The translations under genes were made by a program, and so were the position numbers. DNA of 64,000 nt from Planctomycetota bacterium (lineage in GTDB: Bacteria > Planctomycetota > UBA1135 > UBA2386): contig OZ245838.1 of NCBI GenBank assembly GCA_965228735.1, positions 6,048,001 through 6,112,000 on the forward strand. The letters are read 5' to 3'. Shown piece after piece: positions 173 to 35,930 of the stretch. Every line of letters starts with the position of its first letter. Position 1 is the stretch's first letter. A model generated the notes under the pieces. The model worked only from the letters and a program-made list of their open reading frames with translations. It searched no databases and had not been told where the DNA came from.

Positions 173-1951
173 TCAGCGCCGCACGATGAGCTGCACGCCG
201 TTCGTCGGCGTCAGCGTGCCCGACGTCGCGCCGAAGACGAACGCCTGCAGATACAGGCGGGTGCCGTGCCACGCCACTGCTGGCGGGATCGTCACTGTCT
301 CCGACGCCGTGCTGCCGTTCCAGAAGCCGATCGAGAGCGGCGATGACGGCGTTCCGAGCAGGTAGCGCCCGCTGAACGGTGCTGGCATCGGCACGTTGTC
401 GGGGTCGAGGCTGCCGACGAACGCGTAGAGATCGCCGTTCTGCACGGGGAACCGCGGGTCCAGATCGATGAAGCAGGTCGTGCCGGTCCGCGGCTCGTTG
501 CGCACCGTGAGGCCGTTCTCGAGTCCGGCGGCCGCGAGCATCGCCGCGGTGTCCGGGCGCCGCGCGATGCCGCTGACCTGCGGGCCGTGGGCCCGCAGCA
601 GCGCGCGGATCGCGAACATGTCCATCGCGGCCGCGGCCGCCGGCTCGAGCTGGGAGCGCGCCGCGCCGAGCATCGCGGTCACCGCGCCGGTGACGATGGG
701 GGTCGCGGACGACGTGCCGCTGAAGCTGTCCGTGTAGCGCTGCCGCACATCGCCCGGATCGAACAAGCTGCCGTAGCCCGTCGTCGCGACGGAACCGCCC
801 CAGCCGTTGGCGTCGATGCGGCTGCCGTAGCAGCTGAAGCCGGCGCGCGACAGCGGACCGCCGAGGCTCGCGCCGACGATGATCGCGCCCGAGTCGCGCA
901 CGTTGAGGTTGAACAGTCCGCCGAGCGACGGCGAGTCGAGGTTGACGCCGCCGTTGCCGGCCGCTTCGACGGTCACGATGCCGAGCCCCGTCGCGATCAG
1001 GATCGCGTCGAAGTCGGCCTGGTTCCACTCGGTCGGCCCGAGGCCGAGCGGCGTGCCGGTCTGCGCCTCGAGCACCATCACGTCGCCTGCCGTGAGCACG
1101 GGCAGGCCGACGGCGATCGCGTTCGCGACGCTGTAGCCCGACGCCGGGAAGTCGGTCGCGACCCGGATGTCGACGTCGGGGTTGAAGCCCGTGACGCCGT
1201 AGATGTCGTAGTCGGCCGCGATCTCGCCCATGACGGCGGTGCCGTGGTTGTTGAAGCTCGGGTTGGCGATCGGTGGGCCGACGAGCGCGCTGGCCACGAG
1301 CTCGCGGATGTCCTCGTGATCGAAGTTCCAGCCCCATTCGATGTCGAGCACGGTGATGCCCGCGCCGGTCGCGCCCAGCGAGGATGCGATCGCATGGCCG
1401 TCGATGCCGTTCGGGGAGCTGTCGCGGTAGCCCTGTTGGATCGTGAAGTCCGGGGTCGGCGGGAAGATGTCACCAGGTGGGGGCGTGGGCAGCTCGCGCG
1501 GGTATGCCAGTTCGACCGCCGCCAGTTCGTTGAGCCGCGCCGTGAGCTCGCGGGTCGCCGCGCCGCCCGTCGTGTGGACCTGGAAGTAGAGCCCGAGGTC
1601 GACCGGCGGGCGCTGCCCGGGCGGCGTGCGCGCGAGCTGGCGGGCGCGGATCGCGCGCAGCTCGGCTGCGAGGCCCGGGAAGAACGAGCCGACCTGGCGG
1701 CCGCCGATCACGGCGAGGACGTCGGGCGCGACGATCCTGCCGTCCGCGACGAGCTCGGGGCGGCCTTCCGCGAGCTTCAGCACGACGCGGTCCTGCCCGA
1801 TCGTCGCGGGCAGAGCGTTGGCCATCGCCTTCGGCATGACTCCGCGGACCGGCAGCCCGGTCGCGATGGCGGCGGACTCGGGCGGGGGTGGTAGCTGCGG
1901 CGCGAGCAGGGCGCTGCCGAGGGTCAGACTGAGAACGGCAGAGAGCGTCAT
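173..1951 (-). CDS. Secreted S8 (subtilisin-like) serine peptidase with C-terminal putative sorting domain
   Basis: Signal peptide; catalytic motifs VLDIEWG, NHGTAV, AAGNG, FSGTSSATP. Confidence 0.9.
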   Translation of the reverse strand: MTLSAVLSLTLGSALLAPQLPPPPESAAIATGLPVRGVMPKAMANALPATIGQDRVVLKLAEGRPELVADGRIVAPDVLAVIGGRQVGSFFPGLAAELRAIRARQLARTPPGQRPPVDLGLYFQVHTTGGAATRELTARLNELAAVELAYPRELPTPPPGDIFPPTPDFTIQQGYRDSSPNGIDGHAIASSLGATGAGITVLDIEWGWNFDHEDIRELVASALVGPPIANPSFNNHGTAVMGEIAADYDIYGVTGFNPDVDIRVATDFPASGYSVANAIAVGLPVLTAGDVMVLEAQTGTPLGLGPTEWNQADFDAILIATGLGIVTVEAAGNGGVNLDSPSLGGLFNLNVRDSGAIIVGASLGGPLSRAGFSCYGSRIDANGWGGSVATTGYGSLFDPGDVRQRYTDSFSGTSSATPIVTGAVTAMLGAARSQLEPAAAAAMDMFAIRALLRAHGPQVSGIARRPDTAAMLAAAGLENGLTVRNEPRTGTTCFIDLDPRFPVQNGDLYAFVGSLDPDNVPMPAPFSGRYLLGTPSSPLSIGFWNGSTASETVTIPPAVAWHGTRLYLQAFVFGATSGTLTPTNGVQLIVRR

Positions 1952-2004
1952 CGGGACTCCTTGGGCCGAATCGGTAGGGGCCGGTCGTGGGGGCGGCGAT
2001 GCTA

Positions 2005-3795
2005 CTACGCGACGTCGCTGATGTGGGCGAGCATCCGGGCGTAGGCGCCGTTCCTGGCCACGAGTTGCCGATGCGTGCCGGCCTCCGTGATCGCGCCGTG
2101 CTCGAGCACGAGGATCTGGTCGGCATCGCGCACCGTGGAGAGTCGGTGGGCGACGACGATCGCGGTGCGGCCGCGCAGCAGCACGGCGAGCGCGCGCTGG
2201 AGCCGCGCCTCGGATTCGCTGTCGATGCTCGCCGTGGCTTCGTCGAGCAGCAGCACATCCGGATCGACGACGAGGGCCCGGGCGAAAGCGAGCAGTTGGC
2301 GTTCACCCTGGGAGAACGTCGCGCCGCGTTCTTGCACCTGGGTCCTCAGACCGTCCGGCAGCGCGTCGACGAAACGGTCGGCGCCGACGGTGGCGAGTGC
2401 CTGCTGCACCCGTTCCTCGGAGATCGTCGGGTCGAACAGCCGGACGTTGTCGAGCACGGTGCCCGTGAAGAGGAACAGGTCCTGCGCCACGAACGCGATC
2501 CGTTGCCGCAGCTGGGTCGGATCGAGGTCGCGGACGTCGACGTCGTCGACCTCGACGCGGCCGCCAGTGGTGTCGCGCAGGCGTGAGATGAGCGCGAGCA
2601 GCGTCGACTTGCCCGCCCCGGTTGGCCCGACGACGGCGACGGTCTGGCCCGGCTCGACCGTGAAGTCGACGCCGCGCAGGACCGGTTCGTTCTCGAGGTA
2701 GGCGAAGTCGACGCCGGCGAAGCGGATGCGCGCCGCGCCGCGGCGGGTCGTCGGCAGGGCGCGGCCGCCCGCCGGCGGGAACGTCGGTTCGTCGAGGATC
2801 TGGAAGACGCGTTCGCAGCTCGCGAACGCGGCCTGCAGCACGTTGTACTTCTCGCCGAGCTGTCGGATCGGCGCGGTCAGCAGCTGGTAGCAGAGCCAGA
2901 ACTGCACGAACTGCCCGGGCAGGAGCGTGCCGGCGAGCACGGCGCTGCCGCCGAACCACAGCAGCCCGACCGTCGTCGCGCGCATCGCGAGGTCGATGAG
3001 CGAGAAGAAGATCGAGAAGTGCAGCACCGCACCGCGCCAGGCGTTGGCCGTCTCGCGGTTGCGCTCGCGGTAGCGCGTTGCGATCGCGGTTTCGCGGCCG
3101 AACGCGCGGGTCGTCGCAGCACCGCCGATGAGCTCCGCCGTGTACGCGTTCTGCAGCGCGAGGCGGCTGCGGACGGCGCGATAGGCCTGCTCGGCGCGCT
3201 TCCGAAACAGCAGGCTGATGACGAGCAGGATCGGCGTGGTCGCGATCGTGAAGAACGCGAGTGCCGGGTCGAGGAAGAACAGCACGACGACGACGCCGCC
3301 GATCTTCATCAGGTCGAAGACCGACTGCAGCACGCCGGTCGCGATCAGCTCGTTGAGGTTCTCGACGTCGCTCGTGATGCGCGTCGTGAGCTTGCCGGCC
3401 GGGTTCTTCTCGTGATAGCCGAGGCGCGTCCGGAGCAGGTGGTCGAACAGGTGGCGGCGCACGTCGCGGATCACGCGCTGCCCGTTCCACGCCGTCAGCA
3501 GGCCGTAGACGTAGCCGAGCAGCGCGCCGCCGCCGATCGTCGCGGCGAAGCCGATGCCGAGCCAGATGAGCGACTGCAGCCGATCGTCCGTCGGCAGCGA
3601 GTCGTCGCGCATCGGGCCGTCGATCGCGAGCCGCAGCAGGTAGGGGCCGAGCAACTCGAGGACGAACGAGACGACGAGGATGCCGAGGCAGGCGAGGAAG
3701 CCGCGACGGTAGGGCCGCACGAACGGCCAGAGCCGCCGCAGGAACGTGAACGAGAACCGCCCCTCGGGCGCGTCGTCGAGGTAGGGGTCGCTCAC
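2005..3795 (-). CDS. ABC exporter fused permease/ATPase (MdlB-like half)
   Basis: TM domain, Walker A GPTGAGKS, FSQGERQ signature, LLLDEATA, AHRLS. Confidence 0.92.
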   Translation of the reverse strand: MSDPYLDDAPEGRFSFTFLRRLWPFVRPYRRGFLACLGILVVSFVLELLGPYLLRLAIDGPMRDDSLPTDDRLQSLIWLGIGFAATIGGGALLGYVYGLLTAWNGQRVIRDVRRHLFDHLLRTRLGYHEKNPAGKLTTRITSDVENLNELIATGVLQSVFDLMKIGGVVVVLFFLDPALAFFTIATTPILLVISLLFRKRAEQAYRAVRSRLALQNAYTAELIGGAATTRAFGRETAIATRYRERNRETANAWRGAVLHFSIFFSLIDLAMRATTVGLLWFGGSAVLAGTLLPGQFVQFWLCYQLLTAPIRQLGEKYNVLQAAFASCERVFQILDEPTFPPAGGRALPTTRRGAARIRFAGVDFAYLENEPVLRGVDFTVEPGQTVAVVGPTGAGKSTLLALISRLRDTTGGRVEVDDVDVRDLDPTQLRQRIAFVAQDLFLFTGTVLDNVRLFDPTISEERVQQALATVGADRFVDALPDGLRTQVQERGATFSQGERQLLAFARALVVDPDVLLLDEATASIDSESEARLQRALAVLLRGRTAIVVAHRLSTVRDADQILVLEHGAITEAGTHRQLVARNGAYARMLAHISDVA

Positions 3796-5684
3796 GCGTC
3801 GCCCTCCGGCAGCCCGCCGCCGTCGCTGCTGTCGCCGTCACCGCCCTCGCCCGTGAGCGCCGCGGCCTCCGCCTGCAGCTGCCATGCGGCAGCGTAGGGC
3901 CCGGCTCGTTGCAGGAGCTCGGCGTGGGTGCCACGTTCGCGCACCGTACCGTCCGCGAGGACGAGGATGACGTCCGCATCGGCGACGACCGACAGGCGAT
4001 GGCTCGCGGCGACGACCGTGCGCGCGCGGCGTTCGGTCTCGAGGCCGCGCAGGATGCGCCGTTCGGTGCCGGGGTCGACCGCGGAGAGGGTGTCGTCGAG
4101 CAGCAGTCCCGGGCGGTCGCTGAGCAGGGCGCGCGCCAGCGAGACGCGCTGCTTCTGGCCGCCCGACAGCGTGACGCCGCGTTCGCCGACGAGCGTGTCG
4201 AGCCCCGCGGTGAACTGCGGCAGGTCCTGGTCGAGCGCCGCGGCGGCCACGGCGGCGTCCTTCGCGTCATCGAGCGCGACGTCGGCGCCGTGGTTCTCGG
4301 GGCCCTGGCCGGCGTCCGCGCCGAAGGCGACGTTGTTGCCGATCGTGTCGGAGAACAAGAACGGCTCCTGCGCCGCGAGCGCGAATCGCGCACGCACGAC
4401 GGCCGGCGACAGATCGAGGATGTCGTGGTCGTCGACGAACATCGTGCCGCGCGGCGGGTCGTAGAGCCGCATGAGCAGCGCGAGGAGCGTCGACTTGCCG
4501 CTGCCGACGGGGCCGACGAGGCCGAGCTTCTGGCCGGGTTCGAGCACGAACGACACGTCGTCGAGTGCGGGTCGGCTCGCGCCGTCGTAGCGGAACGTCA
4601 GGTGCTCGACCCGCAGCCGGCCGACGAGCTCCGGCGCGATGCCGGTCGCGACCTCGGGCTCGACCTCGAACAGTTCCGCGATGCGGGTGGCGCCGGCATA
4701 GGCGCGCGGCAGCATCGCGAGCGTCCACCCGAGGATCTCGAGCGGGAACGTCATCAGCGCGAGGTAGCCGATGAACTGGAACAGCTCCCCGACCGACAGC
4801 CGGCCGTGGATCGCCTCGTAGCCGCCGACCGCGAGCACGCTGAGGAGCACCGCGCCGCTGGTCGTGTGGGTCAGGGCGTTGAGCGCCGAGCGCAGCCGCA
4901 CGAGTCTCAGGTTGGCCAGCAGGTAACGCCGGTTCTTCGTGGCCATCGCGGCGCGTTCGCGTTCGACGCGCGCGAACTGGTGCACGACGCGGATGCCGGC
5001 GAAGTCCTCCTGCGCCTGCTGCGAGATCTCGGCGACGGCCTCCTGCGACTTCTTGCTCCAGCGGTGCAGCCGCGGCATCACCGCGCGGAACGCGAGCAGC
5101 AAGACGCCGAACACGCCGGCGGCCGCGAGGGTCACGGGCACGTTCATCGACGCCATGAGCCAGGCGCCGGCCGGCAGCACGAGCAGCGCGTTGCCGCCGT
5201 GCAGCAGCAACGGCCCCATGACGAACCGCACGAGCTCGGCGTCCTGGGTCAGCCGGCTCACGATGTCGCCCGTTCGTGACCGGTCGAACCAGGTCATCGG
5301 CAGCCGCTGGAGGTGGTCGACGAGGTCGTTCTTGAGGTCCTCCTCGACGTGGCGCGAGACGTCGATGAGGAGGCGCCGCGAGATGAATCGGCTGCCCGCT
5401 TCCGCCACGCCGAGGCCCAGCAACAGGAGACAGGTCGCGGCCAGGGCGTCGCGGCCCGCGCTCGATTCGCTAGAGACCTCGCGCTCGAGCAGATCGAGCG
5501 TCTCGCCGATCAGCGCCGGCATCCACAGCGTCACGGCGGCGTGAACGGGGACGAACAGCATGCCGATGACGACTTGGAGCCGGTGCTGCCAGAGCAGCCG
5601 CAGCGGGCGGCCGAAGGCGCGGCGCCAGCGCCGAGAGGTCGGTGGCGCCGCGCTCTGGTCGGGGTCGGTCGTCGGGCTGGCCAC
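3792..5684 (-). CDS. ABC exporter fused permease/ATPase (MdlA-like half of a heterodimer)
   Basis: GPVGSGKS, LSGGQKQR, degenerate Walker B LLLDDT, SHRLS; ends overlapping the partner gene; GTG start at 5684 is inferred. Confidence 0.9.
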   Translation of the reverse strand: MASPTTDPDQSAAPPTSRRWRRAFGRPLRLLWQHRLQVVIGMLFVPVHAAVTLWMPALIGETLDLLEREVSSESSAGRDALAATCLLLLGLGVAEAGSRFISRRLLIDVSRHVEEDLKNDLVDHLQRLPMTWFDRSRTGDIVSRLTQDAELVRFVMGPLLLHGGNALLVLPAGAWLMASMNVPVTLAAAGVFGVLLLAFRAVMPRLHRWSKKSQEAVAEISQQAQEDFAGIRVVHQFARVERERAAMATKNRRYLLANLRLVRLRSALNALTHTTSGAVLLSVLAVGGYEAIHGRLSVGELFQFIGYLALMTFPLEILGWTLAMLPRAYAGATRIAELFEVEPEVATGIAPELVGRLRVEHLTFRYDGASRPALDDVSFVLEPGQKLGLVGPVGSGKSTLLALLMRLYDPPRGTMFVDDHDILDLSPAVVRARFALAAQEPFLFSDTIGNNVAFGADAGQGPENHGADVALDDAKDAAVAAAALDQDLPQFTAGLDTLVGERGVTLSGGQKQRVSLARALLSDRPGLLLDDTLSAVDPGTERRILRGLETERRARTVVAASHRLSVVADADVILVLADGTVRERGTHAELLQRAGPYAAAWQLQAEAAALTGEGGDGDSSDGGGLPEGDA

Positions 5685-5866
5685 TGTGCACAGCATCGAC
5701 GGGCAGCACCGGTGTTGCAAACTCCGACAGCGGCAGCTCGCCCGCGCGGAGCGCGTTCGTGCCTCGTTCTGAGACGAGCCCGGGGTTCCGCAGAACCCGG
5801 AGGCAGGGAAATGCCGATAGGCCGCGAACACCTATTCCGGGATGTCCCCGTCAGGAGTGTCTGCGA

Positions 5867-8800
5867 ATGCGTACTTATCGAGCCGGTCAGAAGGAGGCGG
5901 GCTTCACGTTCGCCGAGGTGGCGTTCAGCATGTTGATCCTCGTGATCGGCGCTGCGGTGCTGATCAACCACCTCGCGGTCAACTACCAAGCCACCAAGAC
6001 CGAGCGTGACAAGGTCTTCGCCTACGCGAAGGCCCAGGCCATCCTCGCCGAGATCCAGAACCTCGTCGACCGCGGCGGCGTCGACTCGGCGGTCGACCTC
6101 GACGTGCTCGACGATGGCGTGGTCAGCAAGAACACGCTGACGATCACGGAGGACGGCTCCGGCAACCTGGTGCTGCCCGACCACGTGCTGTCGGGCAACT
6201 ACCAGCGCTACGAGAACTGGATCTGGTCCCGCCGCATCTCGGTGCAGCCGTTCAGCGGCGTGGACAACCGGAACGTGCGCTACGTGACCGTGACGATCTT
6301 CCGGCGCGACCAGGACGGCAACGAGACCGCGATGGCGGACCTGTCGTCGGTCATCAACTCGGCGGCGGTGGCCTACCCGACGACGCAGGTGTTCGACGTC
6401 TACCTCCTGGCCGTCGAGAACATCCCGGGCTGGTGGGTCTACATGGACACCATCAAGCCGTTCGTCGAGTCGATGATCACCGACCTCGAGAGCCGCAACC
6501 CGGGGCTCGAGTACCGGACGCACTGGATCACGAAGGCCGCGTTCGGCCGCAACCAGGGCTACCGGCCGTTCATCAACGACGCGGTCGACAGCTACGACCC
6601 GATCGCCGACGTCTACCACTACCCGGGCACGATGCCGTCCGGGTCGTCGTCCGTGTACTACTACGTGCCGGACAACTTCAACGGGTACGTCAACCTCGAC
6701 GGCGTCGCGACCAACGGCTACGACGCGACCGACAATCCGGTTCCGTACGCGCTCGCGGACTTCTTCAACCACGCGATGCGCTACCCCGACGAGCTGGAGC
6801 TCTGGGAGCGTCGCGTCGCGGCGATCGAGCAGCGCGAGGCGGACATCGCGGCGGCGATCCTCGCGGGCACGACGCCCCCGGACGAGCTCGACGACATGTC
6901 GAAGGAGCCGACGCTGCGCCTGTTCCTCGAGGACCTCAACACGGACCCCGACAAGTACCGCAACGCGCTCGTCATCAACCTCCACGGCGAGCTCCTGCCG
7001 ATGCCCGCGCTGCGCAACTACAGCGATGCGGCGCGCGTCCCGGACGTGCTGCCGAACATCCGCGCCGTGACGCACCCCGAGCAGCTGCGGACCCTGCGTG
7101 ACCCGGTGACGCCGAGCTCGAGCGATGTGGTCTCGCTGCGTGTCTACGCCTACCACGACGATCCGAGCTACAGCGGCGACGACCGCATCTGGTACGACCC
7201 GGGTGCCGGCAAGAACAACTACATCGTGCTCGAGATCCCGGGCCTCGACATCGTCGACAACTCGACGTACGAGCTCGATCCGTCCGCCCGGCTCTTCAAC
7301 GTGCACGGCGGCGTGCCGTGGGGCTTCGCCGGCACGACCGACTACGACCTGAACTGGCAGCCCGCGGTCCACTTCGACGACCCGGCGCGCGAGCCGGGCC
7401 AGATGTGGTACTTCGCGTACCTCGCGGTCGACCCGGAGGGTGGCCCGCCGGTCAGCCGCATCCTGCTCGGCAACACGCCGGTCATCTGCCCGCTGGACAG
7501 CAACAACCGCGGGCTCGCGGCGACGGACCGAGCGATGCCGTACGGCATGCCCTACGTGCCGTGCTCGATCGAGACGTCGCCGGCATTCGACACGGACCTG
7601 ACGACGATCGGCGCCGTCGGGCCGAAGAACACCGCGCGCTGGAACCTCCAGATCTCGCCGGACGTGCTGACCAACTCGTCGTTCGTCAACCAGTCGGGGG
7701 TCTACTACAACCCGCCGGGTGACGTCCAGCTCGAGGTCCGGACCTACATCTACGCGGGCTCGTACGGGCCGGGCGTGATGTGGCCGGCCGCGTCGCGCGT
7801 GCAGCCCGACAACAAGTCCAAGACCTACACGTGGTGGGCCGACAGCGCCGAGGACGTGCCGTTCACCGAGCGGTCGCAGTTCAACGGCGACCCGCGGCAC
7901 ATGCCGTACGTGGACTGCATGACCGGGGCGACGGACTTCCCGGACGGCTACAACTGGTACTTCAACGATCTCGCCGCCGGTGGCAACGACGCCGCGCCGG
8001 ACTTCCCGTCGATCGACGACGCCCGCCTGCGTGATCGCTGGAACGGTTCGATGTCGTGTGACGTGCCGCGCTACATGCAACTGCTGCGCCGGGGGCTCGC
8101 GCGGAGTTCGTGCGTCTACACGACGTTGACGGGCTATTCGTACTACTACCTCGGGATCGGCAACGACATCGGCTACGACAGCGCGAACGGCTACCCGAGC
8201 TCGATTCCGCTCAACATGACCCCGCACGGCGGGACTGGCAACGGCTACCTCAACACGATTACGAGCAGCCGGCGCTACGTTCGCTCCAACGACGCCACTC
8301 CGTGGTGGGGCATGCCGTGGCTCGGCGAGCTCTACCCGGACTCGGCACAGGCGACGTGGTTCGCGGAAGACGGTTCCGGCAACATGCGCGGCAACCTCGA
8401 CCCGGGCACGAGCGCGGGTGAGTTCTTCCAGACGCCCGTCGCGACGGCCTACGACCTCGGTACGCGCACCAGCTACGGCATCGACATCGTCTCCAACCAC
8501 CAGCGAACGTCGAGCCGCGGCTGCATCTGCTTCTTCAACATCGGGTCCGGTGGGTCGACGTTCGACCACGTTCCGAGTGGCGGCAACGGTAGCACGACGA
8601 CGATCGGCACCGAGGTCGCGACCAACTACAACATCGAGTTGGTCACGACCGCGCCGATCTCGCGTCCGTTCCGGTTGAACGACAACGCGTGGCCGGCCGA
8701 CGAGTGGAACTACAGTCCGTACACGAGCCGCAACACGGCTTCGCTCTACAAGGAGTACTTCACGCACGGTTCGGGCGTCGGCTCGGGCCTCGTGAAGCTC

Positions 8801-9370
8801 GTCGACAACGCCGGTACCGACGCGGCGTACATCGTCGTGAACGGCATCGACAAGACCGTTCAGTCGGGCACGTCGTTCATCGCCAAGTGGTCGGTGCTCA
8901 CGCTCACGCACTCGTTCTTCGAGGCGGGCGACACGGCGAACACGCTGCGCATCAACCAGCTGCCGCGGGTGGAGATCAACTACCCCAACGACATCACCGA
9001 GCTCGTCTCCGTGACGTCGATCGACGTCGTGTACGACGTCGAGTGGACGCGCTGGGACGGTGAGCCCTACACGCTCACCGGCACGTTCAGCGAGGACGAG
9101 TCGTTGCTCGAGTACGTGATCATGTACTCGCGCGACAACGGCGACACCTGGCTGCACGTGCAGGACAACGCCGTCGCGACCCCGGGCGAGCGCCCGACCA
9201 ACGCGACCTACCTCGAGCCCGACGTGTCGGTCGGCGAGGAGACCTACACCTGGCCGACACCGGCCAGCAACTTCCCAGAAGGCACGTACCTGCTCCGCAT
9301 CGACTGCTACCGGCAGGGCGCGCAGGTCCACTACGCCTACCACCAGACGAAGATCTACATCCAGCGATGA
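5867..9370 (+). CDS. Giant prepilin-type (type IV pilin/pseudopilin-like) protein, ~1167 aa
   Basis: AGGAG RBS then MRTYRAGQKEAG|FTFAEVAFSMLILVIG class III signal peptide (G-1, F+1, E+5); strong coding bias; Asp-box-like YSRDNGDTW near the C-terminus. Confidence 0.8.
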   Translation: MRTYRAGQKEAGFTFAEVAFSMLILVIGAAVLINHLAVNYQATKTERDKVFAYAKAQAILAEIQNLVDRGGVDSAVDLDVLDDGVVSKNTLTITEDGSGNLVLPDHVLSGNYQRYENWIWSRRISVQPFSGVDNRNVRYVTVTIFRRDQDGNETAMADLSSVINSAAVAYPTTQVFDVYLLAVENIPGWWVYMDTIKPFVESMITDLESRNPGLEYRTHWITKAAFGRNQGYRPFINDAVDSYDPIADVYHYPGTMPSGSSSVYYYVPDNFNGYVNLDGVATNGYDATDNPVPYALADFFNHAMRYPDELELWERRVAAIEQREADIAAAILAGTTPPDELDDMSKEPTLRLFLEDLNTDPDKYRNALVINLHGELLPMPALRNYSDAARVPDVLPNIRAVTHPEQLRTLRDPVTPSSSDVVSLRVYAYHDDPSYSGDDRIWYDPGAGKNNYIVLEIPGLDIVDNSTYELDPSARLFNVHGGVPWGFAGTTDYDLNWQPAVHFDDPAREPGQMWYFAYLAVDPEGGPPVSRILLGNTPVICPLDSNNRGLAATDRAMPYGMPYVPCSIETSPAFDTDLTTIGAVGPKNTARWNLQISPDVLTNSSFVNQSGVYYNPPGDVQLEVRTYIYAGSYGPGVMWPAASRVQPDNKSKTYTWWADSAEDVPFTERSQFNGDPRHMPYVDCMTGATDFPDGYNWYFNDLAAGGNDAAPDFPSIDDARLRDRWNGSMSCDVPRYMQLLRRGLARSSCVYTTLTGYSYYYLGIGNDIGYDSANGYPSSIPLNMTPHGGTGNGYLNTITSSRRYVRSNDATPWWGMPWLGELYPDSAQATWFAEDGSGNMRGNLDPGTSAGEFFQTPVATAYDLGTRTSYGIDIVSNHQRTSSRGCICFFNIGSGGSTFDHVPSGGNGSTTTIGTEVATNYNIELVTTAPISRPFRLNDNAWPADEWNYSPYTSRNTASLYKEYFTHGSGVGSGLVKLVDNAGTDAAYIVVNGIDKTVQSGTSFIAKWSVLTLTHSFFEAGDTANTLRINQLPRVEINYPNDITELVSVTSIDVVYDVEWTRWDGEPYTLTGTFSEDESLLEYVIMYSRDNGDTWLHVQDNAVATPGERPTNATYLEPDVSVGEETYTWPTPASNFPEGTYLLRIDCYRQGAQVHYAYHQTKIYIQR

Positions 9371-10410
9371 ACGTTCTCAGCTCACGCCAGATGCCCCGCG
9401 AGGGCGGCTTCTCCTTGCTGGAAGTCGTCATCGCGTCGGTGCTGCTCTTCGTCATGATCTACTCGGTGGCGAACCTGAGCCTCTCCGGGGCCGACGCCTC
9501 CGACCTTTCGCGACGGATGACGCGGTGCTCGGAGGTCTCGTCGGAGGTGCTCAACGACACACGCATCGAGCTCGTGTCGTCGGTGCGCCTCTTCGGCAAC
9601 AACACCGAGGGCAACGCCAACCTCGCGATCTTCGATCTGAGCGCGGCGCCGACGCCGCTCGACACGAGCATCCTGCCGACGATCTCCGCGACGGGCACGA
9701 TTCAGGCCGACACCGTCGGCAACGAGATCACGGGCAACTCGCTGTTCTTCGCGCGACTTGCGTGGACCGACCGATTCGTCTGCACGAGCGGCAACGAGTA
9801 CCTCGTCGACATCGTCCGCTGGGTTCATATCTACCTGACGCTCGAGGATGGCGGGCCGGTTCCCGGCAGCCCGCTCGGCCTCAACCTCGTGCGCGTCGTG
9901 AGCGAACCGATCGCGGACGCGGCGAGCGTCGACGAGATCACGGACTCGACGGACCAGGCCGAGGTCCTGCTCCATCTGCTCAACGCCACGCCGGATAGCA
10001 ACGGCGATACCCACGACCCGGTCGAGATCGTCTGGTCGCGCGGCGATCTGCCGAGCGTCACCGGCACGATTCGGCAGATCGACTCGGCGGACGGCTCGCT
10101 CAGTGACACCCCGCTGAGCGGCCGGGCCAACCCGTTCGAGGTCGAGCCGCGCGACGACGCGATCCAGGGCATGCTCTACTACCGTCACCACTCGGTGGCG
10201 TCGAACTACTCGCAGCCGAGCTACGGCGTCGCGACGTTCGGCATCCCGGACAACACGAACAACGGGTTCCCGCACGGCCTCGAGGTCCAGATCGTGGGCC
10301 CCAGTTCGGCCCGCCAGGTGATGATGCACCTGGTGCTTACTACGACGAACTCGCGCGGCCACCGGGCTTACACGGACACGACCGTCGTGGTGGACGCGCG
10401 GGAGATGTAG
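9367..10410 (+). CDS. Prepilin-type N-terminal cleavage/methylation domain protein (minor pilin-like), 347 aa
   Basis: REGG|FSLLEVVIASVLL motif; ATGA overlap with the upstream giant pilin. Confidence 0.85.
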   Translation: MNVLSSRQMPREGGFSLLEVVIASVLLFVMIYSVANLSLSGADASDLSRRMTRCSEVSSEVLNDTRIELVSSVRLFGNNTEGNANLAIFDLSAAPTPLDTSILPTISATGTIQADTVGNEITGNSLFFARLAWTDRFVCTSGNEYLVDIVRWVHIYLTLEDGGPVPGSPLGLNLVRVVSEPIADAASVDEITDSTDQAEVLLHLLNATPDSNGDTHDPVEIVWSRGDLPSVTGTIRQIDSADGSLSDTPLSGRANPFEVEPRDDAIQGMLYYRHHSVASNYSQPSYGVATFGIPDNTNNGFPHGLEVQIVGPSSARQVMMHLVLTTTNSRGHRAYTDTTVVVDAREM

Positions 10411-23366: not shown

Positions 23367-25826
23367 CTAAAAAGCCCCGACCGTGAGCTCGAGCGCGTTC
23401 GAGCTGCTGAGCGACATCAGCAGACCGCCGCCGTCGAGCTCGACCTGGATGTACTGATGCGACAGCGGCAGTCCGGCGAACGCGGGGTCGTTGGGGATCG
23501 AGAACGCGTACTCGACCGCGCCGGCGATCGGCAGGCCGAGGAACGTCGCCTCGGTGTTCGCGAGCAGGTCGCAGTTGGGCAGGGCCGCCGGGTCGAACGC
23601 CTGGAGCGGCACGTTCTGCGAGCCGATGCCGACGAGCCCGAACGCGAGGGCGCCGGGCAGGAACCCGTTCGCCGTGGACTCGAACGTCGAGCCGGTCCAC
23701 GGCAGCGTGCTGCTGGTCAGCGTGATCGGACCCGCGGGGCCGACGCACGCCGTGGTCACGTTGGTGAGCGTCGCCGGGCAGGTCGTCGTGACGATCGCGA
23801 GGTTGCCCGCGGCGCCGCTGCCGGCCAGCGTCAGCGAACCGCCGACCGCGAGATCACCGTTCGGCAGCTGCGCGAGCGCCGTGAGGTCGCTGTCGGTGTC
23901 CGTGCCGAGGAGCGGCGCCCACGCGGTCCCGTCGAACCGCGCGAGGTTCGCGACCGCGACACCGCCGGCCGTGGCGAAGCTGCCCGCCACGACGAGGTCG
24001 CCGTTCTGCAGCTCGACGACCGCGCGCGCCGGGCCGTCGACGCCGCCGCCGAGATCGTCCCACGTCGCGCCGTTCCAGCGCGCCACTCCGTTCGCGGGCA
24101 CCCCGTCGACGCCGGTGAACTCGCCGACGATCACGAGGTCGCCGTTCCCGCGTTCGAGCACGTCGAGCACGATGCCGCCCGTCGGGCTCGCGAACGGCGT
24201 CCACGCGCTGCCGTCCCAGGTCGACAACTGCGGGCCGAGGATCGGATCGCGGTGCGCGGCGAGCAGATCGCCGCTGCCGAGCTCGATCACCGCGCGCGGA
24301 TCCTGCGGCAGGCCGCCGCCGAGCGTCGACCACGTCGCGCCGTTCCAGCGCGCGACCCGCGACGCGAGGATGCCGCCGATCGTCGTGAAGTTGCCGACCG
24401 CGACGAGGTCGCCGGCCGCGGTCACGACGAGGTCGCGCACGGTGTTGTTGGCGTCGCCCATCGACTGCCACGCGTTGCCGTCCCAGCGCGCGATGCGATC
24501 GATCGACTGCCCGCCCGCGGACCGGAAGTCGCCGCCCGCGATGATCTCGCCCGCGCGCTCGACGACGGTGCGCGGGATGTTGACCTCGAAGCCGCCGCCG
24601 AATGCGTGCCACTGCGTGCCGTCCCAGCGCGCGATGCGGTTGGCCGGCGTCGTGCCGGCCGCGAGGAACGAGCCGACCGCGATCAGGTCGCCGTCGCCGT
24701 TGACGAAGAGATCCTCGACCGGCAGGTTGAGCCCGTGCCCGGCGCCGAGCGGTTGCCACGCGCTGCCGTCCCACTCTGCCGCACCGCGCGCGCCGACGCC
24801 GCCAACCGTGAGGATGTTGCCGCACATCACGAACCCGGTCGGCGTCGGCAGGAGATCGCGCACGTTCCACGGGTCGCCGAAGGCCTGCCACGTCGTGCCG
24901 CTGCGGCGGGCGAGGCCGCGGATGTTGGTGCCGCCGACGTTGGTGAAGTCACCGCCGATCAGCAGATCGCCGTTCGGCAGGTCGAGGAACGCGTAGACGG
25001 CCTGGTCGGCGCCGCCGAGGTTCTCCCAGATCGAGCCGTTCCAGCGCGCGAAGCGTTGGATCGGCGCGCCGCCGATGAACGTGAAGAAGCCACCGGCGAG
25101 GAGGTTGCCCGCGGCATCGACGTGCAGCGCTTCGACGATCGCCGAGGCGCCACCGCCGAACTGCTGCCACGACACGCCGTCCCAGACCGCGAGGTAGTTG
25201 GTCGCGACCGCGCCGGCGTTGAGGAAGTTGCCGCCGGCGACGAGGTCGCCGTTCGGCAGTTCGGCGAGCGTGTACGCCGGGCGGTCGAAGCCCGTGCCGA
25301 TCGCGGAGAACGTCGCCCCATCCCAGCGGGCCACGCGGTCGACGGGAACGCCCGCGATCGACGTGAAGAACCCGGCGAACGCGAGGTCGCCGCTGCTCAG
25401 CACTTCGATCGCGCGCACGACGCTGTTGCTGTCGTGGTCGGTCCACGTCGTGCCGTCGAAGCTCGCGAGCCGCACGGCTGGTTGGCCATCGATCGTGGTG
25501 AACGCACCGCCGACCCAGAGGTCGCCGTTGCCGTCGACCGCGACGGCCTCGACGTTGCCGTCGAGCGCGGCGATCGCGTGCCACTCGGTGCCGTCGAAGC
25601 GCGCGAGCTTGCTCGCGGCGACGTTGCCCGCGGCGACGAACTCACCGCCGACGACGAGTTGTTCCGCGAGCGGTCCCGCGCCATCGGGGTCCCACATCGT
25701 CGCGCAGTAGCCCCAGCGGCTGAGACCGGCGAAGCCGAGCCCGGGAACGAACTCGTTGTCGCACTGCGAACGCAACGGGCCACTGCTCGCGAGCCCCGCG
25801 AGCAGGATGAGCGTGGTGGCTCTCAT
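23367..25826 (-). CDS. Large secreted beta-propeller repeat protein with C-terminal putative sorting domain
   Basis: Signal peptide MRATTLILLAG; many repeats of GDL..GG.F...G.....IARWDG..W. Confidence 0.85.
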   Translation of the reverse strand: MRATTLILLAGLASSGPLRSQCDNEFVPGLGFAGLSRWGYCATMWDPDGAGPLAEQLVVGGEFVAAGNVAASKLARFDGTEWHAIAALDGNVEAVAVDGNGDLWVGGAFTTIDGQPAVRLASFDGTTWTDHDSNSVVRAIEVLSSGDLAFAGFFTSIAGVPVDRVARWDGATFSAIGTGFDRPAYTLAELPNGDLVAGGNFLNAGAVATNYLAVWDGVSWQQFGGGASAIVEALHVDAAGNLLAGGFFTFIGGAPIQRFARWNGSIWENLGGADQAVYAFLDLPNGDLLIGGDFTNVGGTNIRGLARRSGTTWQAFGDPWNVRDLLPTPTGFVMCGNILTVGGVGARGAAEWDGSAWQPLGAGHGLNLPVEDLFVNGDGDLIAVGSFLAAGTTPANRIARWDGTQWHAFGGGFEVNIPRTVVERAGEIIAGGDFRSAGGQSIDRIARWDGNAWQSMGDANNTVRDLVVTAAGDLVAVGNFTTIGGILASRVARWNGATWSTLGGGLPQDPRAVIELGSGDLLAAHRDPILGPQLSTWDGSAWTPFASPTGGIVLDVLERGNGDLVIVGEFTGVDGVPANGVARWNGATWDDLGGGVDGPARAVVELQNGDLVVAGSFATAGGVAVANLARFDGTAWAPLLGTDTDSDLTALAQLPNGDLAVGGSLTLAGSGAAGNLAIVTTTCPATLTNVTTACVGPAGPITLTSSTLPWTGSTFESTANGFLPGALAFGLVGIGSQNVPLQAFDPAALPNCDLLANTEATFLGLPIAGAVEYAFSIPNDPAFAGLPLSHQYIQVELDGGGLLMSLSSSNALELTVGAF

Positions 25827-29049: not shown

Positions 29050-29116
29050 GGCGGCGGAGAAGATCACGATACCTGGGACGTCGGCGAGGCTATCCTCTTC
29101 CCGTCCTCCCCACGGC

Positions 29117-30679: not shown

Positions 30680-30707
30680 GTCCCGCCGCGCGCGACTGAC
30701 GCACTCT

Positions 30708-30848
30708 GCGACACACCGGGTCGGGAGTCTCTCGGCGAGACGCGTGGACCGCGCGATGGGACCGCACCGTGCGCGCCGGGCGACCGGGGCGCTGGCGGTC
30801 CGTCCGACCCGAGCATCGAACTCGGGGTATCCTGTCCGTGCGTGTCGC
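30708..30848 (+). ncRNA. Candidate structured RNA (ncRNA or cis-regulatory leader), family not recognised
   Basis: Nested complementary segments GCGACAC/GTGTCGC, CGGGTCGG/CCGACCCG, GTCTC/GAGAC, GGACCGC/GCGGTCC, CCGG-GCGA-CCGG, CCCGAG/CTCGGG. Confidence 0.4.
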
Positions 30849-30887
30849 TTCCGTGGCGCGCACCTCGTGTGGCTTCGTTGTGTGGTG

Positions 30888-30924
30888 GGGGGCCGGTCCT
30901 TCGGGGCCGGCCCCCGCTTTTTTT
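30888..30924 (+). terminator. Intrinsic terminator
   Basis: 12-bp GC stem with C(UUCG)G loop followed by GC and a 7-nt T run. Confidence 0.85.
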
Positions 30925-30983
30925 CCTCCGCGTCACACTGCGCCGTCGACCCGACCTGGCCGGCGCGCGAAGCTCTGTCGCCA

Positions 30984-32339
30984 GTGAGCATCCTGCGCGA
31001 CCCCGTCCACGGTGACATCGAGCTGACGGCCGATGAACTGCGACTCGTCGACACGGCCGAGTTCCAGCGCCTGCGCGGCATCAAGCAACTCGGTTCGGCG
31101 AGCCTCGTCTTCCCCGGTGCGGTGCACACGCGGTTCGAGCACTCGATCGGCACGATGCACCTGGCGGACCGTCTGCTCGATGCGTGCAACAAGAACGCGG
31201 CGCGGGATCCGGCCGGCTGCCATCGCGTGACCGAGGAGGAGCGTCGCATCCTGCGCGCCGCCGCGCTGCTGCACGACGTCACGCACATTCCTTACGGCCA
31301 CAACATCGAGGACCAGACGGGCCTGCTCGCGCGGCACGACGAACCCGAACGGTTCGCCGGCGTGCTCGGCGACACCGAGCTCGGGCGCGAACTCGAACGC
31401 CAGGGACTGCATCGCGAGGTGCTCGCCGTCCTCACGGGTGAGCCGGTCGCCGGCACCGGCGCGACCGTGCCGCCGTTCTGGCGGCAGGTCCTCAGTGACA
31501 CGATCGACGCCGACCTGCTCGACTACCTGCGGCGTGACGCGCTCTACACCGGGCTCGAGCTGCGCTACGACCGCCGTGTCCTCGACTACTTCCGCATCGA
31601 CCGCCGCACGCAGGAGCTGTTCGTCGACTGCGAGAAGAACGGCATGCTGCGCGAGGACATCGTCAGCGAGCTGCTGCGCGTGCTCGAGTGCCGCTACCAC
31701 TTCAGCGAACGCGTCTACTACCACCACGCCAAGATCGCGGCCGGCGCGCTGCTGTCGCGCATGGTCGAGCTCGCGCTGCGCAGCGGCGCGCTCGAGGGCG
31801 ACGAGCTGCAGACGATGACCGACGAGTCGCTCGTCGTGCGCCTCGCCGCGCTCGACCTCGGTGACGCGGAGCAGAACGCCCGGCTGCAGCGCTTCGTCGA
31901 ACGCTTCCGCCGCCGCGCGTTGCCGAAGCGCGTGCTCGTGCTGCCGTTCTACAGCAACCGCGACCAGCAAGACGAGCTGCTCGAGCGCTACTTCCAGCCA
32001 GGGGACCCGACCGCGCGCTTCGAGTGGGAGGCCGAGATGGAGGCGCGCGCGGCGAACGAGCTCGGCGAACGTTCGGACGTGATGCTCTACTGCCCGAAGC
32101 GCCGGATGCAGCTCAAGGAAGTGAAGACGCGCGTGCGCTTCCCCGGCAGCGGCGGCACCGAACCGCTCGACGCCTACGCCGACGAGCTGCCGCGCCTGCG
32201 CGACCTCGCGGACAGCTACCCGCGGTTGTGGAAGCTCTACGTCTTCACCTCGACCGAGGACCGACTGCAGCGCCGCAAGCTGCAGGAGATGTGCCTCGCG
32301 GCGCTCCCGGCCGGCTGCCGGAACGCGCTGGCGCTGTAG
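30984..32339 (+). CDS. HD-domain phosphohydrolase, SAMHD1/dNTPase-like
   Basis: RDPVHG, QRLRGIKQLG, HTRFEHSIG, LLHD, DADLLDYLRRD, VYYH. Confidence 0.9.
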   Translation: MSILRDPVHGDIELTADELRLVDTAEFQRLRGIKQLGSASLVFPGAVHTRFEHSIGTMHLADRLLDACNKNAARDPAGCHRVTEEERRILRAAALLHDVTHIPYGHNIEDQTGLLARHDEPERFAGVLGDTELGRELERQGLHREVLAVLTGEPVAGTGATVPPFWRQVLSDTIDADLLDYLRRDALYTGLELRYDRRVLDYFRIDRRTQELFVDCEKNGMLREDIVSELLRVLECRYHFSERVYYHHAKIAAGALLSRMVELALRSGALEGDELQTMTDESLVVRLAALDLGDAEQNARLQRFVERFRRRALPKRVLVLPFYSNRDQQDELLERYFQPGDPTARFEWEAEMEARAANELGERSDVMLYCPKRRMQLKEVKTRVRFPGSGGTEPLDAYADELPRLRDLADSYPRLWKLYVFTSTEDRLQRRKLQEMCLAALPAGCRNALAL

Positions 32340-32404
32340 CGGTCCAGCACGATCGTCCCGGACGCAGTATCATCGGGCCGTCCAACAAGCCCAGGAGGCT
32401 CTCG

Positions 32405-33640
32405 ATGCTCGATTCACGGTTGCTGTTCGTCGTCGGTCTGTTCCTCGCTCCGGTTCCCGCTCAGACGTTCGTCGTCGATCGAGCTGGCGGCGCGGGCTCG
32501 CAGTTCCTCGAAATCTCGACGGCGGTCGCAGCGGTGCCGGATGGGGCGACGTTGCTCGTTCGTCCCGGCGTCTACCAGGGGTTCGGCTTCGCGAACAAGG
32601 GGCTGACGATCCTCGGCGACCCGGGTGTGCGGATCGACGGGATCGTCTCGGTCTCGGACACCGCCGCGCATCAGCCGACGATCCTGCGCGGGTTCGACTG
32701 GGTGCTCTACACCGCGCCGGCGAACCTCGGCGGCAGCAACGCGCTGATCCAGCTGACGAACTGCATCGGCCGCGTCGTGCTCGAGGACCTCGATACGAGT
32801 AGCGGCGTCAATTGCCTCAGTCTGCCGATCGGCAGTGACTGCCTCTGGTCACCCGGTCTGCAGGCGAACGACTGCCACCAGCTCGTCGTGCGCGACTGCG
32901 CGATCCACGCGGGATCGTGGATCGTCGGCACCGCCGTGTTGATCGAGTCGTCGGAGTTTGCCGGCAAGAGCTATCAGCACAACTCGGCCGGGCACCCGAC
33001 GGCCGGACTCAGGCTGTCGAGCAGTTTCGCGCAGGTCGCCGGGAGCAGCACGTTCGTCGGCGGCGACGGCGTGAACGGTGGACTGGCGAACGCGCCGGCC
33101 GAGCCGGGCATCTGGGTCGGCCTCGGTGACCTGCGCTTCCTCGAAGGGCACGCGACGGGCGGCGGGATCACCGGCGGGTTCGGTACGACGCACCCGCCGA
33201 AGTCGGCCGTCGAACTGTTCAACGCGTCGCTGCGGCGGGATCCGGTGGTCCAGCTGACGACGTTCGGCGCCCCGCCCGTCGGCGGTTTCGGCACGGTCGA
33301 CAACAGGCCGATGCCGGTCACGACGAGCACGGGCGCAGCACCTGGCGGCACGTTGACCGCGAGCGTGAGCAGCGAGAACGGTGACCTGCTGCTGCTCGTC
33401 ACCGGCCTGCCGGGGAACCCGACGCCGCTGCCGGGCTTCACGGACGCGTTCTGGCTCGATGCGACCGTGCACGTGTTCTCGGCCATCGGCGTGCAGCAGG
33501 GCGGCGTGCCGCTCACGACGTCGATCCCGGTGCCGGCGAATCCGGCCCTGCGCGGGCTCGCGCTGACGTTCCAGGGCGTCGCGGACGGGCCCGTGACCGG
33601 CCTCGCGGCCGCGAACCCGTCGTTCGCGATCGTGCGCTGA
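32405..33640 (+). CDS. Secreted hypothetical protein (beta-helix-like N-region) with C-terminal putative sorting domain
   Basis: AGGAGG RBS; signal peptide; I..AV.A...G.TLLVRPGVY start typical of pectin-lyase-like folds. Confidence 0.75.
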   Translation: MLDSRLLFVVGLFLAPVPAQTFVVDRAGGAGSQFLEISTAVAAVPDGATLLVRPGVYQGFGFANKGLTILGDPGVRIDGIVSVSDTAAHQPTILRGFDWVLYTAPANLGGSNALIQLTNCIGRVVLEDLDTSSGVNCLSLPIGSDCLWSPGLQANDCHQLVVRDCAIHAGSWIVGTAVLIESSEFAGKSYQHNSAGHPTAGLRLSSSFAQVAGSSTFVGGDGVNGGLANAPAEPGIWVGLGDLRFLEGHATGGGITGGFGTTHPPKSAVELFNASLRRDPVVQLTTFGAPPVGGFGTVDNRPMPVTTSTGAAPGGTLTASVSSENGDLLLLVTGLPGNPTPLPGFTDAFWLDATVHVFSAIGVQQGGVPLTTSIPVPANPALRGLALTFQGVADGPVTGLAAANPSFAIVR

Positions 33641-33716
33641 GCGGGCAGAAAGTCGCGGGGACCTGTCGGATCGCGGGTCGCCGGGACACTGGCTTCGGGA
33701 ACCCCGCCCGAAGCCG

Positions 33717-35930
33717 ATGAATCCACGCGATCGAGTCTCCTTCTCCGTTCACGCGAGCCTGGCCCTGGCCCTCGCCGCGACCGCGCCTTGTCAGCGGCCC
33801 GACGTGGAGTCGGCCCGGATCGCCGTCCAGCGGAACGCCGGCCTGCAGGCCGTGCCAGGCGGGCTCCACGGCGGCGGGGAGCGCTACGACGTGCGCTTCG
33901 ACGCCGCCGGCATGCGGTTCGAGCCGGCGCTCGGGGCGTCGATCGCGACGACGCAACGGCTCGGCCTCTCGCCGATCGCGGTCGAGCGCGGCGGCGAACC
34001 GGTCCTGGCTCTGCCGTCCGGTGCCGAGCCGCGGCAGCACGATCGGACGGCGGTGTTCGCGCATTCGCGGGCGGTGCGTGAACGCTTCGCCGTTGGCGTC
34101 GACGGGGTGGAGCTGTCGTGGATCTTCGACGAGCGGCCAGCGGGGCACGGCGATCTCGTCGTGCGCTACGCGGTCGACACCGAACTCGCCGAGCCGGTTG
34201 CCTTGCCGGGCGGCGGCCTCTACTTCGCGCACCCGGGCGTCGGCGGGGTTACCGTCGGCACCGTGACGGGGATCGACGCCGCGGGCCGCTCGGTGCCTGG
34301 CGGTCTGCACTACGAGAACGGCGAACTGTCCCTGTCGCTGCCGGATGAGTTCGTCGACCGCGCGAGCTACCCGCTCGTGCTCGATCCGCTGATCGGCACG
34401 CGCTTCGACATCTGGGGCGGGCCGCAGTACACGGATTCGCAGCCCGACTGTTCGTTCGAGAAGACCGAGGACCGGTTCCTGGTCACGTTCCTGCGCTACT
34501 TCTCGGCGGGCGACGTCCGCATCCGCGCGCAGCTCATCGATCGGACCGCCGGCCTGTTCCAGGGCGTCATCTGGGTCACGACGGGTGGTTTCTCGCTCGC
34601 GCCGCGGGTCGCGAGCTTCTCGAGCCGCGACCGCTTCGGTGTCGTGTGGACCACCAACGTCGGGACCCAGTCGATTGCGTACTTCCGGTCGGTGTCGTCG
34701 ATCGACGGGTCGACGTCGACGACTCGCACGCTCGGGCAGAGCACGGCGGGGACGCTACGCAACCTCGACATCGGTTCGGAAGCGGGCGCGTTCCAGCAGG
34801 ACTACGCGTTCGTGACGGTGTGGGACGACACCAACGACGGCCGGATCTACGCGCGACGGGTCGGCATCGACGCCGGCGGCAACTCGGTGCTCTACCCGGC
34901 CTACACGGTGTTCGCCGATGCCGGACTGAACGAGTACTCGCAGCCGGCGATCGCTCGGGCGGCGGCGACGGGCGGCAAGCTCATGGTGGCCGCCCGTCGA
35001 TTCAGCGGCATCGGTCCGACGATCGGGATCAGCTCGCGACTCGTCTCGGCGCGTGACAACACGGTCAGCTCGCCGACGACGATTGCCGGCAACACGACGG
35101 ACGAGTTCCGCACGCCCGAGGTCGACGGGTACGGGAACGAATGGGTCGTGGCCTGGCGGCAGACGCCGAGCGGATCGTCCCGCCACGCCGTCGTCATGCG
35201 GTCGGGGCAGCTGGTCGGGTCGTCCGTGCAACTCGCACCGCCGGTCACGCTCGGCGGCTCGTCGCTGGTGCAGGCCGACAGCCCGACCGTCGGCTACGCG
35301 CACGGCAAGACGTGGCTCGCCTATCGTCGCGTCGCGTTCGGCGCACCGACGCTGCAGGCGCGCGGTATCGACAGCTCCACGTGTCTGAGCTGCCAGGACA
35401 CGTTCAGCGAACCGGTCCCGGCGGGCGTCACCCGGATCGTGGTGGCGACCACGATGTCAGGCAACGATCCGAACCGCGACGAAGGCGTGATCGTCTGGGC
35501 CGAGAGCTCGGACGTCTGGGTCCAACGCGTCGGCAACCACAGCAACGGAGGCACGGTCACGAACATCGGCGGCGGGTGTGGCGCCGGCGGCAACCACTCC
35601 GCCCAACCGCCGGTCATCGGCGCGAACGCGCTCTCCTGCTCGGTGACCGGGCTGTCGACGACGGCGACGCTGACGATGTTCAACCTCACGATCGGCGCGA
35701 CGCCGATCGTGTGCGGCACCTGCGAGTGGCTGCCGCCCTCGGTCGCCGTCGTGATGCCGGTGACCCAGTGGCAGAACGCGAGCTTCGGCTACGTCTTCCC
35801 GTGCATGCCGAGCCTCGTCGGTGTGCAGTTCGAGACCCAGTGGACCACCTATGACCCGGCTACCACGGCGTGCGCGCTGTATCCGGGCTTCTCGGTGTCC
35901 GACCGCCTGCTGCAGACGATCGGGCAGTAG
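33717..35930 (+). CDS. Secreted hypothetical protein, 737 aa, with C-terminal putative sorting domain
   Basis: Signal peptide; ASYPLVLDP motif; beta-rich repeats. Confidence 0.75.
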   Translation: MNPRDRVSFSVHASLALALAATAPCQRPDVESARIAVQRNAGLQAVPGGLHGGGERYDVRFDAAGMRFEPALGASIATTQRLGLSPIAVERGGEPVLALPSGAEPRQHDRTAVFAHSRAVRERFAVGVDGVELSWIFDERPAGHGDLVVRYAVDTELAEPVALPGGGLYFAHPGVGGVTVGTVTGIDAAGRSVPGGLHYENGELSLSLPDEFVDRASYPLVLDPLIGTRFDIWGGPQYTDSQPDCSFEKTEDRFLVTFLRYFSAGDVRIRAQLIDRTAGLFQGVIWVTTGGFSLAPRVASFSSRDRFGVVWTTNVGTQSIAYFRSVSSIDGSTSTTRTLGQSTAGTLRNLDIGSEAGAFQQDYAFVTVWDDTNDGRIYARRVGIDAGGNSVLYPAYTVFADAGLNEYSQPAIARAAATGGKLMVAARRFSGIGPTIGISSRLVSARDNTVSSPTTIAGNTTDEFRTPEVDGYGNEWVVAWRQTPSGSSRHAVVMRSGQLVGSSVQLAPPVTLGGSSLVQADSPTVGYAHGKTWLAYRRVAFGAPTLQARGIDSSTCLSCQDTFSEPVPAGVTRIVVATTMSGNDPNRDEGVIVWAESSDVWVQRVGNHSNGGTVTNIGGGCGAGGNHSAQPPVIGANALSCSVTGLSTTATLTMFNLTIGATPIVCGTCEWLPPSVAVVMPVTQWQNASFGYVFPCMPSLVGVQFETQWTTYDPATTACALYPGFSVSDRLLQTIGQ

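Follow-up and report, generated by a model that had tools for sequence, protein, structure and literature searches.

A one-per-protein domain on hundreds of putatively exported proteins in a deep clade of Planctomycetota, with a possible role as surface anchor

INTRODUCTION

Why should four proteins with unrelated bodies end in the same domain? The question is raised by a 64,000-nucleotide stretch of a Planctomycetota genome (GenBank contig OZ245838.1, positions 6,048,001 to 6,112,000; here termed the window), in which a preliminary description, made from the sequence alone, noted such an ending on an S8 peptidase, a beta-propeller protein and two further proteins and read it as a candidate lineage-specific sorting or secretion signal. 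We find that the ending belongs to a new family that seems to act as known terminal modules for sorting or anchoring do; 371 genes of the source genome carry it, always in single copy. A role as retained surface anchor is tentatively favoured.

No description of the domain family was found in the full-text literature searched, a body of text that mostly lacks subscription papers and does not cover supplements. Many unexplained signal-peptide proteins have been noted in Planctomycetota, and the accessible portions of those accounts mention no such domain (PMC11131199, PMC11495043).

DOMAIN FAMILY

All eight peptides quoted in the preliminary description are present in the sequence, each pair in one frame and directly before the stop codon. 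Genes were called with our own dicodon-model caller, not a standard tool. The four carriers (Table 1) have bodies unrelated to each other (BLASTP, all E≥1), and their terminal domains, which measure 125–136 amino acids (aa) rather than the ∼110 first estimated, match each other weakly in pairwise BLASTP (best E 0.008), so that the four copies alone would hardly pass as a family. The profile evidence is nevertheless clear. A profile made from the four at once retrieved 74 open reading frames in the source genome (G000; 7.19 Mb, 5,551 called genes) and no reversed decoys, and a 132-column profile gave 286 matches at E≤1e-3. A profile made from 248 other copies in G000, with the four left out, scored the window copies at E 1.1e-23 to 3.1e-6 (26–82 bits, against 6–13 bits for the best of 200 shuffles of each), confirming that one domain ends all four proteins.

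A broadened profile finds 371 carrier genes in G000 and 47 in the 2.27 Mb fetched and scanned of a distant comparison genome (G160, 2.4 Mb), again with no decoys. Carriers account for ∼7% of the genes of G000 and ∼10% of its coding residues, the largest having 1235 aa. The counts below refer to 252 aligned copies, to 276 or 349 carriers, or to the final 371.

Each carrier has exactly one copy of the domain, both in G000 (371/371) and in G160 (47/47). Its position is tolerant rather than strictly C-terminal, 28 of the 371 copies in G000 standing elsewhere: 343 end within 15 residues of the stop codon, 14 have a tail of 16–60 residues behind them, 13 directly follow the signal peptide and one is internal. 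The 47 copies in G160 comprise 43 terminal and four N-terminal ones. Mid-protein windows gave no match at E≤0.01 (0/1,278). Some genes (∼11 in G000, one in G160) encode a signal peptide and the domain with no cargo, a count that leaves out three short rows resembling fragments, and these stand-alone copies rank among the most diverged. The family forms 32,321 clusters at 50% identity, and the domain ends at most six residues from the C-terminus in 149 of the best 150.

The domain has ∼130 residues and a median pairwise identity of 25%. A proline and a glutamine are nearly constant (each in 238 of 252 aligned copies), serine or threonine precedes the last strand in 207 of 252, and a pair of cysteines co-varies, with both present in 129 copies, neither in 77 and only one in 46. 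Neither Pfam nor NCBIfam has a match on the four window domains; Pfam has none inside the domain among the 4+52 carriers scanned, and no PDB sequence matches below E 0.28. Its 30 Atlas neighbours have no Pfam family in common, their commonest phylum being Planctomycetota. The proposal of a cargo-independent, lineage-confined terminal beta domain on proteins with export signals, belonging to no catalogued family, is upheld.

CARGO AND EXPORT FEATURES

The signal peptides of the four window carriers, called by eye and by a heuristic of ours, are predictions; no transmembrane (TM) helix was found in these proteins by our hydropathy rule, and on both counts the preliminary description stands. Across G000 the co-occurrence with signal peptides is marked, the heuristic finding one in 232 of 276 carriers versus 1,594 of 4,467 other proteins. 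Glutamine lies in the cleavage zone of 217 of those 232, versus 722 of those 1,594. None of the 276 carriers has two or more TM helices and none has a C-terminal one.

Gln directly after the predicted signal peptide is a genome-wide trait of G000, shared by ∼870 proteins of at least 250 aa (283 carriers, 588 others), and resembles the Bacteroidota Q-rule outside that phylum. [quoted passage not shown] The glutaminyl cyclase family PF05096 is absent from G000; tandem M28 genes there are candidate glutaminyl cyclases only and have no BLAST match in G160.

The cargo is diverse, 260 bodies falling into 81 single-linkage clusters. A Pfam scan of 52 of the 371 carriers found a family in 29, none of them a housekeeping periplasmic one: 13 Kelch, six DUF5122/Rax2, two VPS10, two di-haem peroxidase and two DUF7452, with BNR, trypsin, M14 and sulfatase once each. 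Relatives of the 737-aa window protein in the genome all carry the domain (24/24). The body of the 411-aa window protein may be a beta-helix, given its weak NosD-family match (E 0.002).

Charge separates carriers from other exported proteins. Among Gln-start, TM-free proteins of at least 250 aa, with charge taken as the lysine, glutamate and arginine share of the body, the domain is carried in G000 by 256 of 296 proteins under 12%, 15 of 34 at 12–14% and none of 472 above; the corresponding figures for G160 are 29/52, 0/5 and 0/137. Most of the unmarked low-charge Gln-start proteins show diverged domain copies by eye. Low charge is generally regarded as a mark of extracellular proteins. Four low-charge Gln-start proteins without the domain (Table 1) share a C-terminal motif, which we take to resemble the end of a MAM domain and which is possibly a second terminal module.

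Lipobox proteins rarely carry the domain (3/133). In one relative of a lipoprotein family the lipobox is replaced: this protein starts with Gln after its signal peptide and contains the domain internally. The lipoproteins, of 880–1360 aa, stand in tandem in G000 (Table 1); some of these lie in a type IV pilus locus that has a syntenic counterpart in G160.

PREDICTED FOLD

The AlphaFold2 model of the domain is an all-beta sandwich of high confidence (predicted local distance difference test, pLDDT, 96.5; predicted TM-score, pTM, 0.89), complete and with no low-confidence donor segment. Its best structural matches are generic immunoglobulin (Ig) and macroglobulin (MG) domains (Z up to 8.4, root mean square deviation (rmsd) 2.7, 92 residues aligned), and the predicted fold is accordingly a generic Ig-like sandwich. 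Foldseek with the model returned nothing at E≤0.001, its weak rows including lipid-binding ML domains (E>0.01). The MG and Ig/FnIII neighbours (Z 7–8.4, rmsd 2.3–2.9, ∼90 residues aligned) show at most 14% identity to it and come in tandem arrays, which this domain never does. The top 50 of a wide structure search with the isolated domain held no T9SS C-terminal domain (CTD); compared with the domain, the CTD of PorU gave Z 6.5, rmsd 3.3 and 96 aligned residues, rank 47, among unrelated Ig domains. The structural likeness to the T9SS CTD is of a generic kind.

In the subfamily with a tail behind the domain, the modelled protein (pTM 0.90, tail pLDDT 97–99) aligns to single jelly-roll domains from residue 15–38 to 366, while Ig matches cover only ∼203–330. 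The domain is therefore predicted to sit inserted within the cargo fold. Cutting it off would then remove strands of the cargo, which argues that it is not clipped in that subfamily.

PHYLOGENETIC RANGE

The domain was matched in 67 of 301 Planctomycetota genomes, with at most 13 candidates scored per genome, a cap because of which the figures do not give copy numbers and a negative is not exhaustive. Four or more candidates match in 61 genomes from 16 families, up to 13 of 13; the remaining six match one or two, and five of these stayed at that level once all candidates were scored. In a quick RpoB tree with midpoint root, a branch with SH-aLRT 93 has 15 domain-rich families on one of its sides, next to the families with stray copies. 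From these sequences the domain appears multi-copy in one deep, mostly uncultured clade. Di-haem peroxidases of a sister family (genomes G170 and G201) have the domain internally, followed by a further region of 320 aa; as a multi-copy tag in its own right that region was rejected, having only one or two matches per genome.

A MamK-family actin that scores above the NCBIfam cut-off lies next to the twin-secretin operon of G000. Such an actin has been described for ‘Saltatorellota’ in the part of the source available (10.1101/817700). As a clade marker it fails, occurring in 14 of 21 domain-rich and 9 of 44 domain-less genomes, so that any link of the clade to ‘Saltatorellota’ is one we infer.

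SEARCH FOR A MACHINERY OR PARTNER

The preliminary description had envisaged a machinery not yet described; we looked for one and did not find it. PorV was not found in 32 genomes (25 of them domain-rich), with Bacteroides thetaiotaomicron matching as control. No match to the T9SS CTD model TIGR04183 exceeded the cut-off in the 32, the control genomes likewise lacking one, and PF14349 (SprA) matched neither G000 nor any control. Apart from a TonB-dependent receptor and porins, no large barrel is common to G000 and G160 by a barrel heuristic (43 and 7 candidates).

G000 has seven secretin genes, and both genomes keep type II secretion system (T2SS)-like, type IV pilus and twin-secretin/TPR/ExbB/ExbD loci. 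In G160 an operon of GspD-E-F-G-H-like genes is retained, together with one GspK-like gene and five further secretin genes; its NCBIfam T2SS matches fall below their cut-offs. Secretin systems would, judging by gene content, be the only evident exit for carriers.

The twin-secretin operon encodes two long secretins with tetratricopeptide repeats (TPR), TPR proteins, one ExbB/MotA and two ExbD homologues, and in G160 is preceded by PilM-like genes; it joins a secretin to a Ton-type motor, a combination of which our literature search found no description. A conserved pseudopilin cluster in both genomes encodes a 1,700-aa PilX/GspK-like protein and PilM-like genes, with neither secretin nor ATPase of its own.

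Four machinery candidates were profiled; all occur outside the clade as well and none tracks the domain. The twin-secretin operon is syntenic in G000 and G160, yet 284 of 301 Planctomycetota genomes have its secretin. Next to a GspK-like gene, a short secretin of lipoprotein type occurs in 15 of 19 domain-rich versus 5 of 25 other genomes, and a shared exported protein of no known family in 14 of 19 versus 17 of 25. The suggested link to a nearby pilin-like gene (5867-9370) is not supported either, this gene being present in 6 of 23 genomes rich in the domain and in 3 of 10 that lack it. The gene stands with a second one; the proteins of 1167 and 347 aa have prepilin-like N-termini, the large one conserved in the family (4/4) and patchy in other families. 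No dedicated partner emerged among 236 shared exported candidates, of which 103 were Pfam-scanned, ∼80 NCBIfam-scanned and few profiled, BLAST missing fast-evolving ones.

Table 1. Positions of the domain carriers and of other features discussed in the text. Window coordinates are given unless a genome is named.
Feature	Position	Strand	Remarks
S8 (subtilase) peptidase, 592 aa	173..1951	-	Predicted signal peptide 1-18 then Gln; domain carrier
Its terminal domain, residues 467-591	179..553	-	Without Cys pair; leave-out E 2.6e-7
DUF5122/Rax2-type beta-propeller protein, 819 aa	23367..25826	-	Predicted signal peptide 1-20 then Gln
Its terminal domain, residues 683-818	23373..23780	-	Nearest to consensus; Cys pair (694, 752); leave-out E 1.1e-23; model pLDDT 96.5
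411-aa protein	32405..33640	+	Predicted signal peptide 1-19 then Gln; no Pfam match in the body
Its terminal domain, residues 283-410	33251..33634	+	No Cys; leave-out E 3.1e-6
737-aa protein	33717..35930	+	Predicted signal peptide 1-25 then Gln; no Pfam match in the body
Its terminal domain, residues 610-737	35544..35927	+	Cys-rich variant; leave-out E 3.5e-11
Two proteins with prepilin-like N-termini	5867-10410		1167 and 347 aa
Extracytoplasmic function (ECF) sigma factor	36782-39796		1004 aa; fused to carboxypeptidase-regulatory-like Ig repeats
Tandem lipoproteins	G000:C1:2569111-2575679, 2655148-2660532, 2691436-2703361, 2418873-2422367, 1245429-1248329		880-1360 aa
Low-charge Gln-start proteins without the domain	G000:C1:5689984-5691477, 5970101-5971489, 7038004-7039377, 2954019-2955686		Shared C-terminal motif
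Twin-secretin operon	G000:C1:6769699-6784599; G160 C5:9351-24324		MamK-family actin at 1481-2560 of the G000 locus
Pseudopilin cluster	G000:C1:1397583-1412826; G160 C15		
C25-family peptidase, single	G000:C1:3598143-3600725		860 aa; signal peptide; near type VI-like gene cluster

DISCUSSION

At a little short of an even chance, we favour the reading that the domain is a retained surface address, tying ∼370 otherwise unrelated proteins with export signals to one shared partner on the outer cell surface. Carriers begin with a signal peptide followed by Gln, have no membrane helices and bear one domain each. They would be exported by Sec, cleaved by signal peptidase I (SPI) and folded in the periplasm, where roughly half of the domain copies would form a disulfide and some cargoes would have haem attached. 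The domain, predicted to be read as a folded unit and not as a free C-terminus, would stay uncleaved; one of the secretin systems would let the folded cargo pass the outer membrane, and the domain would then bind a surface component specific to the clade, be it protein, glycan or lipid, and hold the cargo there.

Single-copy occurrence, position tolerance, the predicted insertion, the frequency of signal peptides among carriers, the marking of low-charge proteins, the kinds of cargo, rarity on lipobox proteins, the co-varying cysteines and the distribution of dockerins all speak for such an anchor. A close parallel is offered by the dockerins of other Planctomycetota, both type I (PF00404) and GC-type (NF041540), as lineage-specific modules expanded on many exported proteins and retained there. 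Dockerins are small calcium-binding helical modules that may stand at either protein end, whereas this domain is all-beta in the model, and neither PF00404 (0 matches in G000) nor NF041540 (0/5 genomes) was found. Dockerin expansions (12–77 matches) were seen in 5 of 44 genomes that lack the domain and in none of 21 that are rich in it, a weak sign that the domain may functionally replace them, taking the place that they hold in other Planctomycetota.

Several points weigh against a retained anchor. The data are also compatible with a pure export signal; a single tight receptor is difficult to reconcile with ∼11 stand-alone domains and with a median identity of 25%; low charge as an extracellular mark is general knowledge rather than a test; and no partner was identified. 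Modelling is the basis for the insertion, the tail profile run against relatives as a check at sequence level not being significant, and 53 of 349 carriers fail the signal peptide rule, many resembling wrong starts. Since 39 of the 44 domain-less genomes also lack a dockerin expansion, and kin genomes are not independent, mutual exclusion is weak.

The main rival, possible if on balance doubtful, is a pure export tag: a machine built on a secretin, either type II or the twin-secretin/TPR/ExbB/ExbD operon, would recognise the domain in the periplasm and export the folded cargo without anchoring it. A portable folded tag at either end of the cargo or inside it would then commit hundreds of unrelated proteins to type II or ExbB/ExbD-powered twin-secretin export, a proposition we hold equally tentatively. 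It would account for the near-complete, one-per-protein marking of the low-charge exported class and for a T2SS-like operon and secretins being kept even in the 2.4 Mb of G160, with no large shared barrel by the heuristic. The T2SS is thought to read folded features of uncertain nature (PMC13721041, accessible part), which fits the domain's tolerance of position. However, secretin systems are phylum-wide, as the twin and short secretins show, while the domain is not, and no clade-specific adaptor was found among the candidates profiled. Other terminal tags offer a limited comparison. The PEP-CTERM, GlyGly-CTERM and MYXO-CTERM signals are likewise cargo-independent and mark a large secretome, the GlyGly-CTERM cargo using the T2SS; they consist of a short motif, a TM helix and a basic tail and are cut by a sortase-like enzyme, whereas carriers have no C-terminal TM helix.

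An Ig module of generic kind, spread by domain shuffling and serving structure or ligand binding (as stabiliser, spacer or periplasmic lipid or glycan binder) with no part in sorting, is improbable. The generic fold, the weak ML-domain rows and the periplasmic digestion suggested for Planctomycetota (PMC11131199, in the part available) would suit such a module. Against it stand the domain's absence from mid-protein windows, its never occurring twice in a protein and its total exclusion from high-charge exported proteins. Stalk Ig repeats and carbohydrate-binding modules, by comparison, occur in multiple copies or mid-protein.

More improbable still is self-assembly of the domain, by which a lattice or filament on the surface would display the cargoes, with the stand-alone copies as filler subunits; the existence of such genes in both genomes and the share of coding residues taken up by carriers would agree with it, but the stand-alone copies are among the most diverged and the model is a complete sandwich.

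The T9SS analogy of the preliminary description holds for a one-per-protein terminal beta domain on exported proteins and not for a strict, cleaved C-terminal signal, given the N-terminal, tailed and cargo-less copies. The type A CTD of Bacteroidota (TIGR04183/PF18962) is a seven-stranded Ig-like sandwich, and the domain is Ig-like in the model; like that CTD it occurs once per protein and mostly at the extreme C-terminus, carried by hundreds of Sec/SPI proteins per genome with Gln starts and the same cargo kinds. It differs in its ∼130 aa, Cys pair, long inserts, lack of sequence match and net negative charge, and in that some copies are N-terminal, tail-followed, internal or alone. A conserved lysine in the last strand is among the type A features (PMC11285876, as far as accessible); in this family lysine occurs in the last eight residues of only 27 of 343 copies. 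A highly diverged T9SS-type CTD, cut by a PorU-like enzyme after passing an unrecognised barrel, is therefore very unlikely and largely refuted: the fold, the Gln starts, the similar cargo and the single C25-family protein of G000 would suit it, but PorV was not found in 32 genomes, the domain is predicted to lie inserted within a cargo fold, and the C25 protein has no BLAST match in the fetched part of G160.

Whatever its exact role, the domain has a profile from which the surface secretome can be predicted for an entire deep clade that is mostly uncultured and in which exported proteins largely lack annotation. As an anchor, the domain would define a way of surface display that is new. Were a secretin machine to read it, substrate choice by the T2SS would become directly testable with a single fusion; as a secretin tag it would be the first modular signal dedicated to secretion through secretins, and a CTD-style pathway would have arisen in Planctomycetota independently of T9SS.

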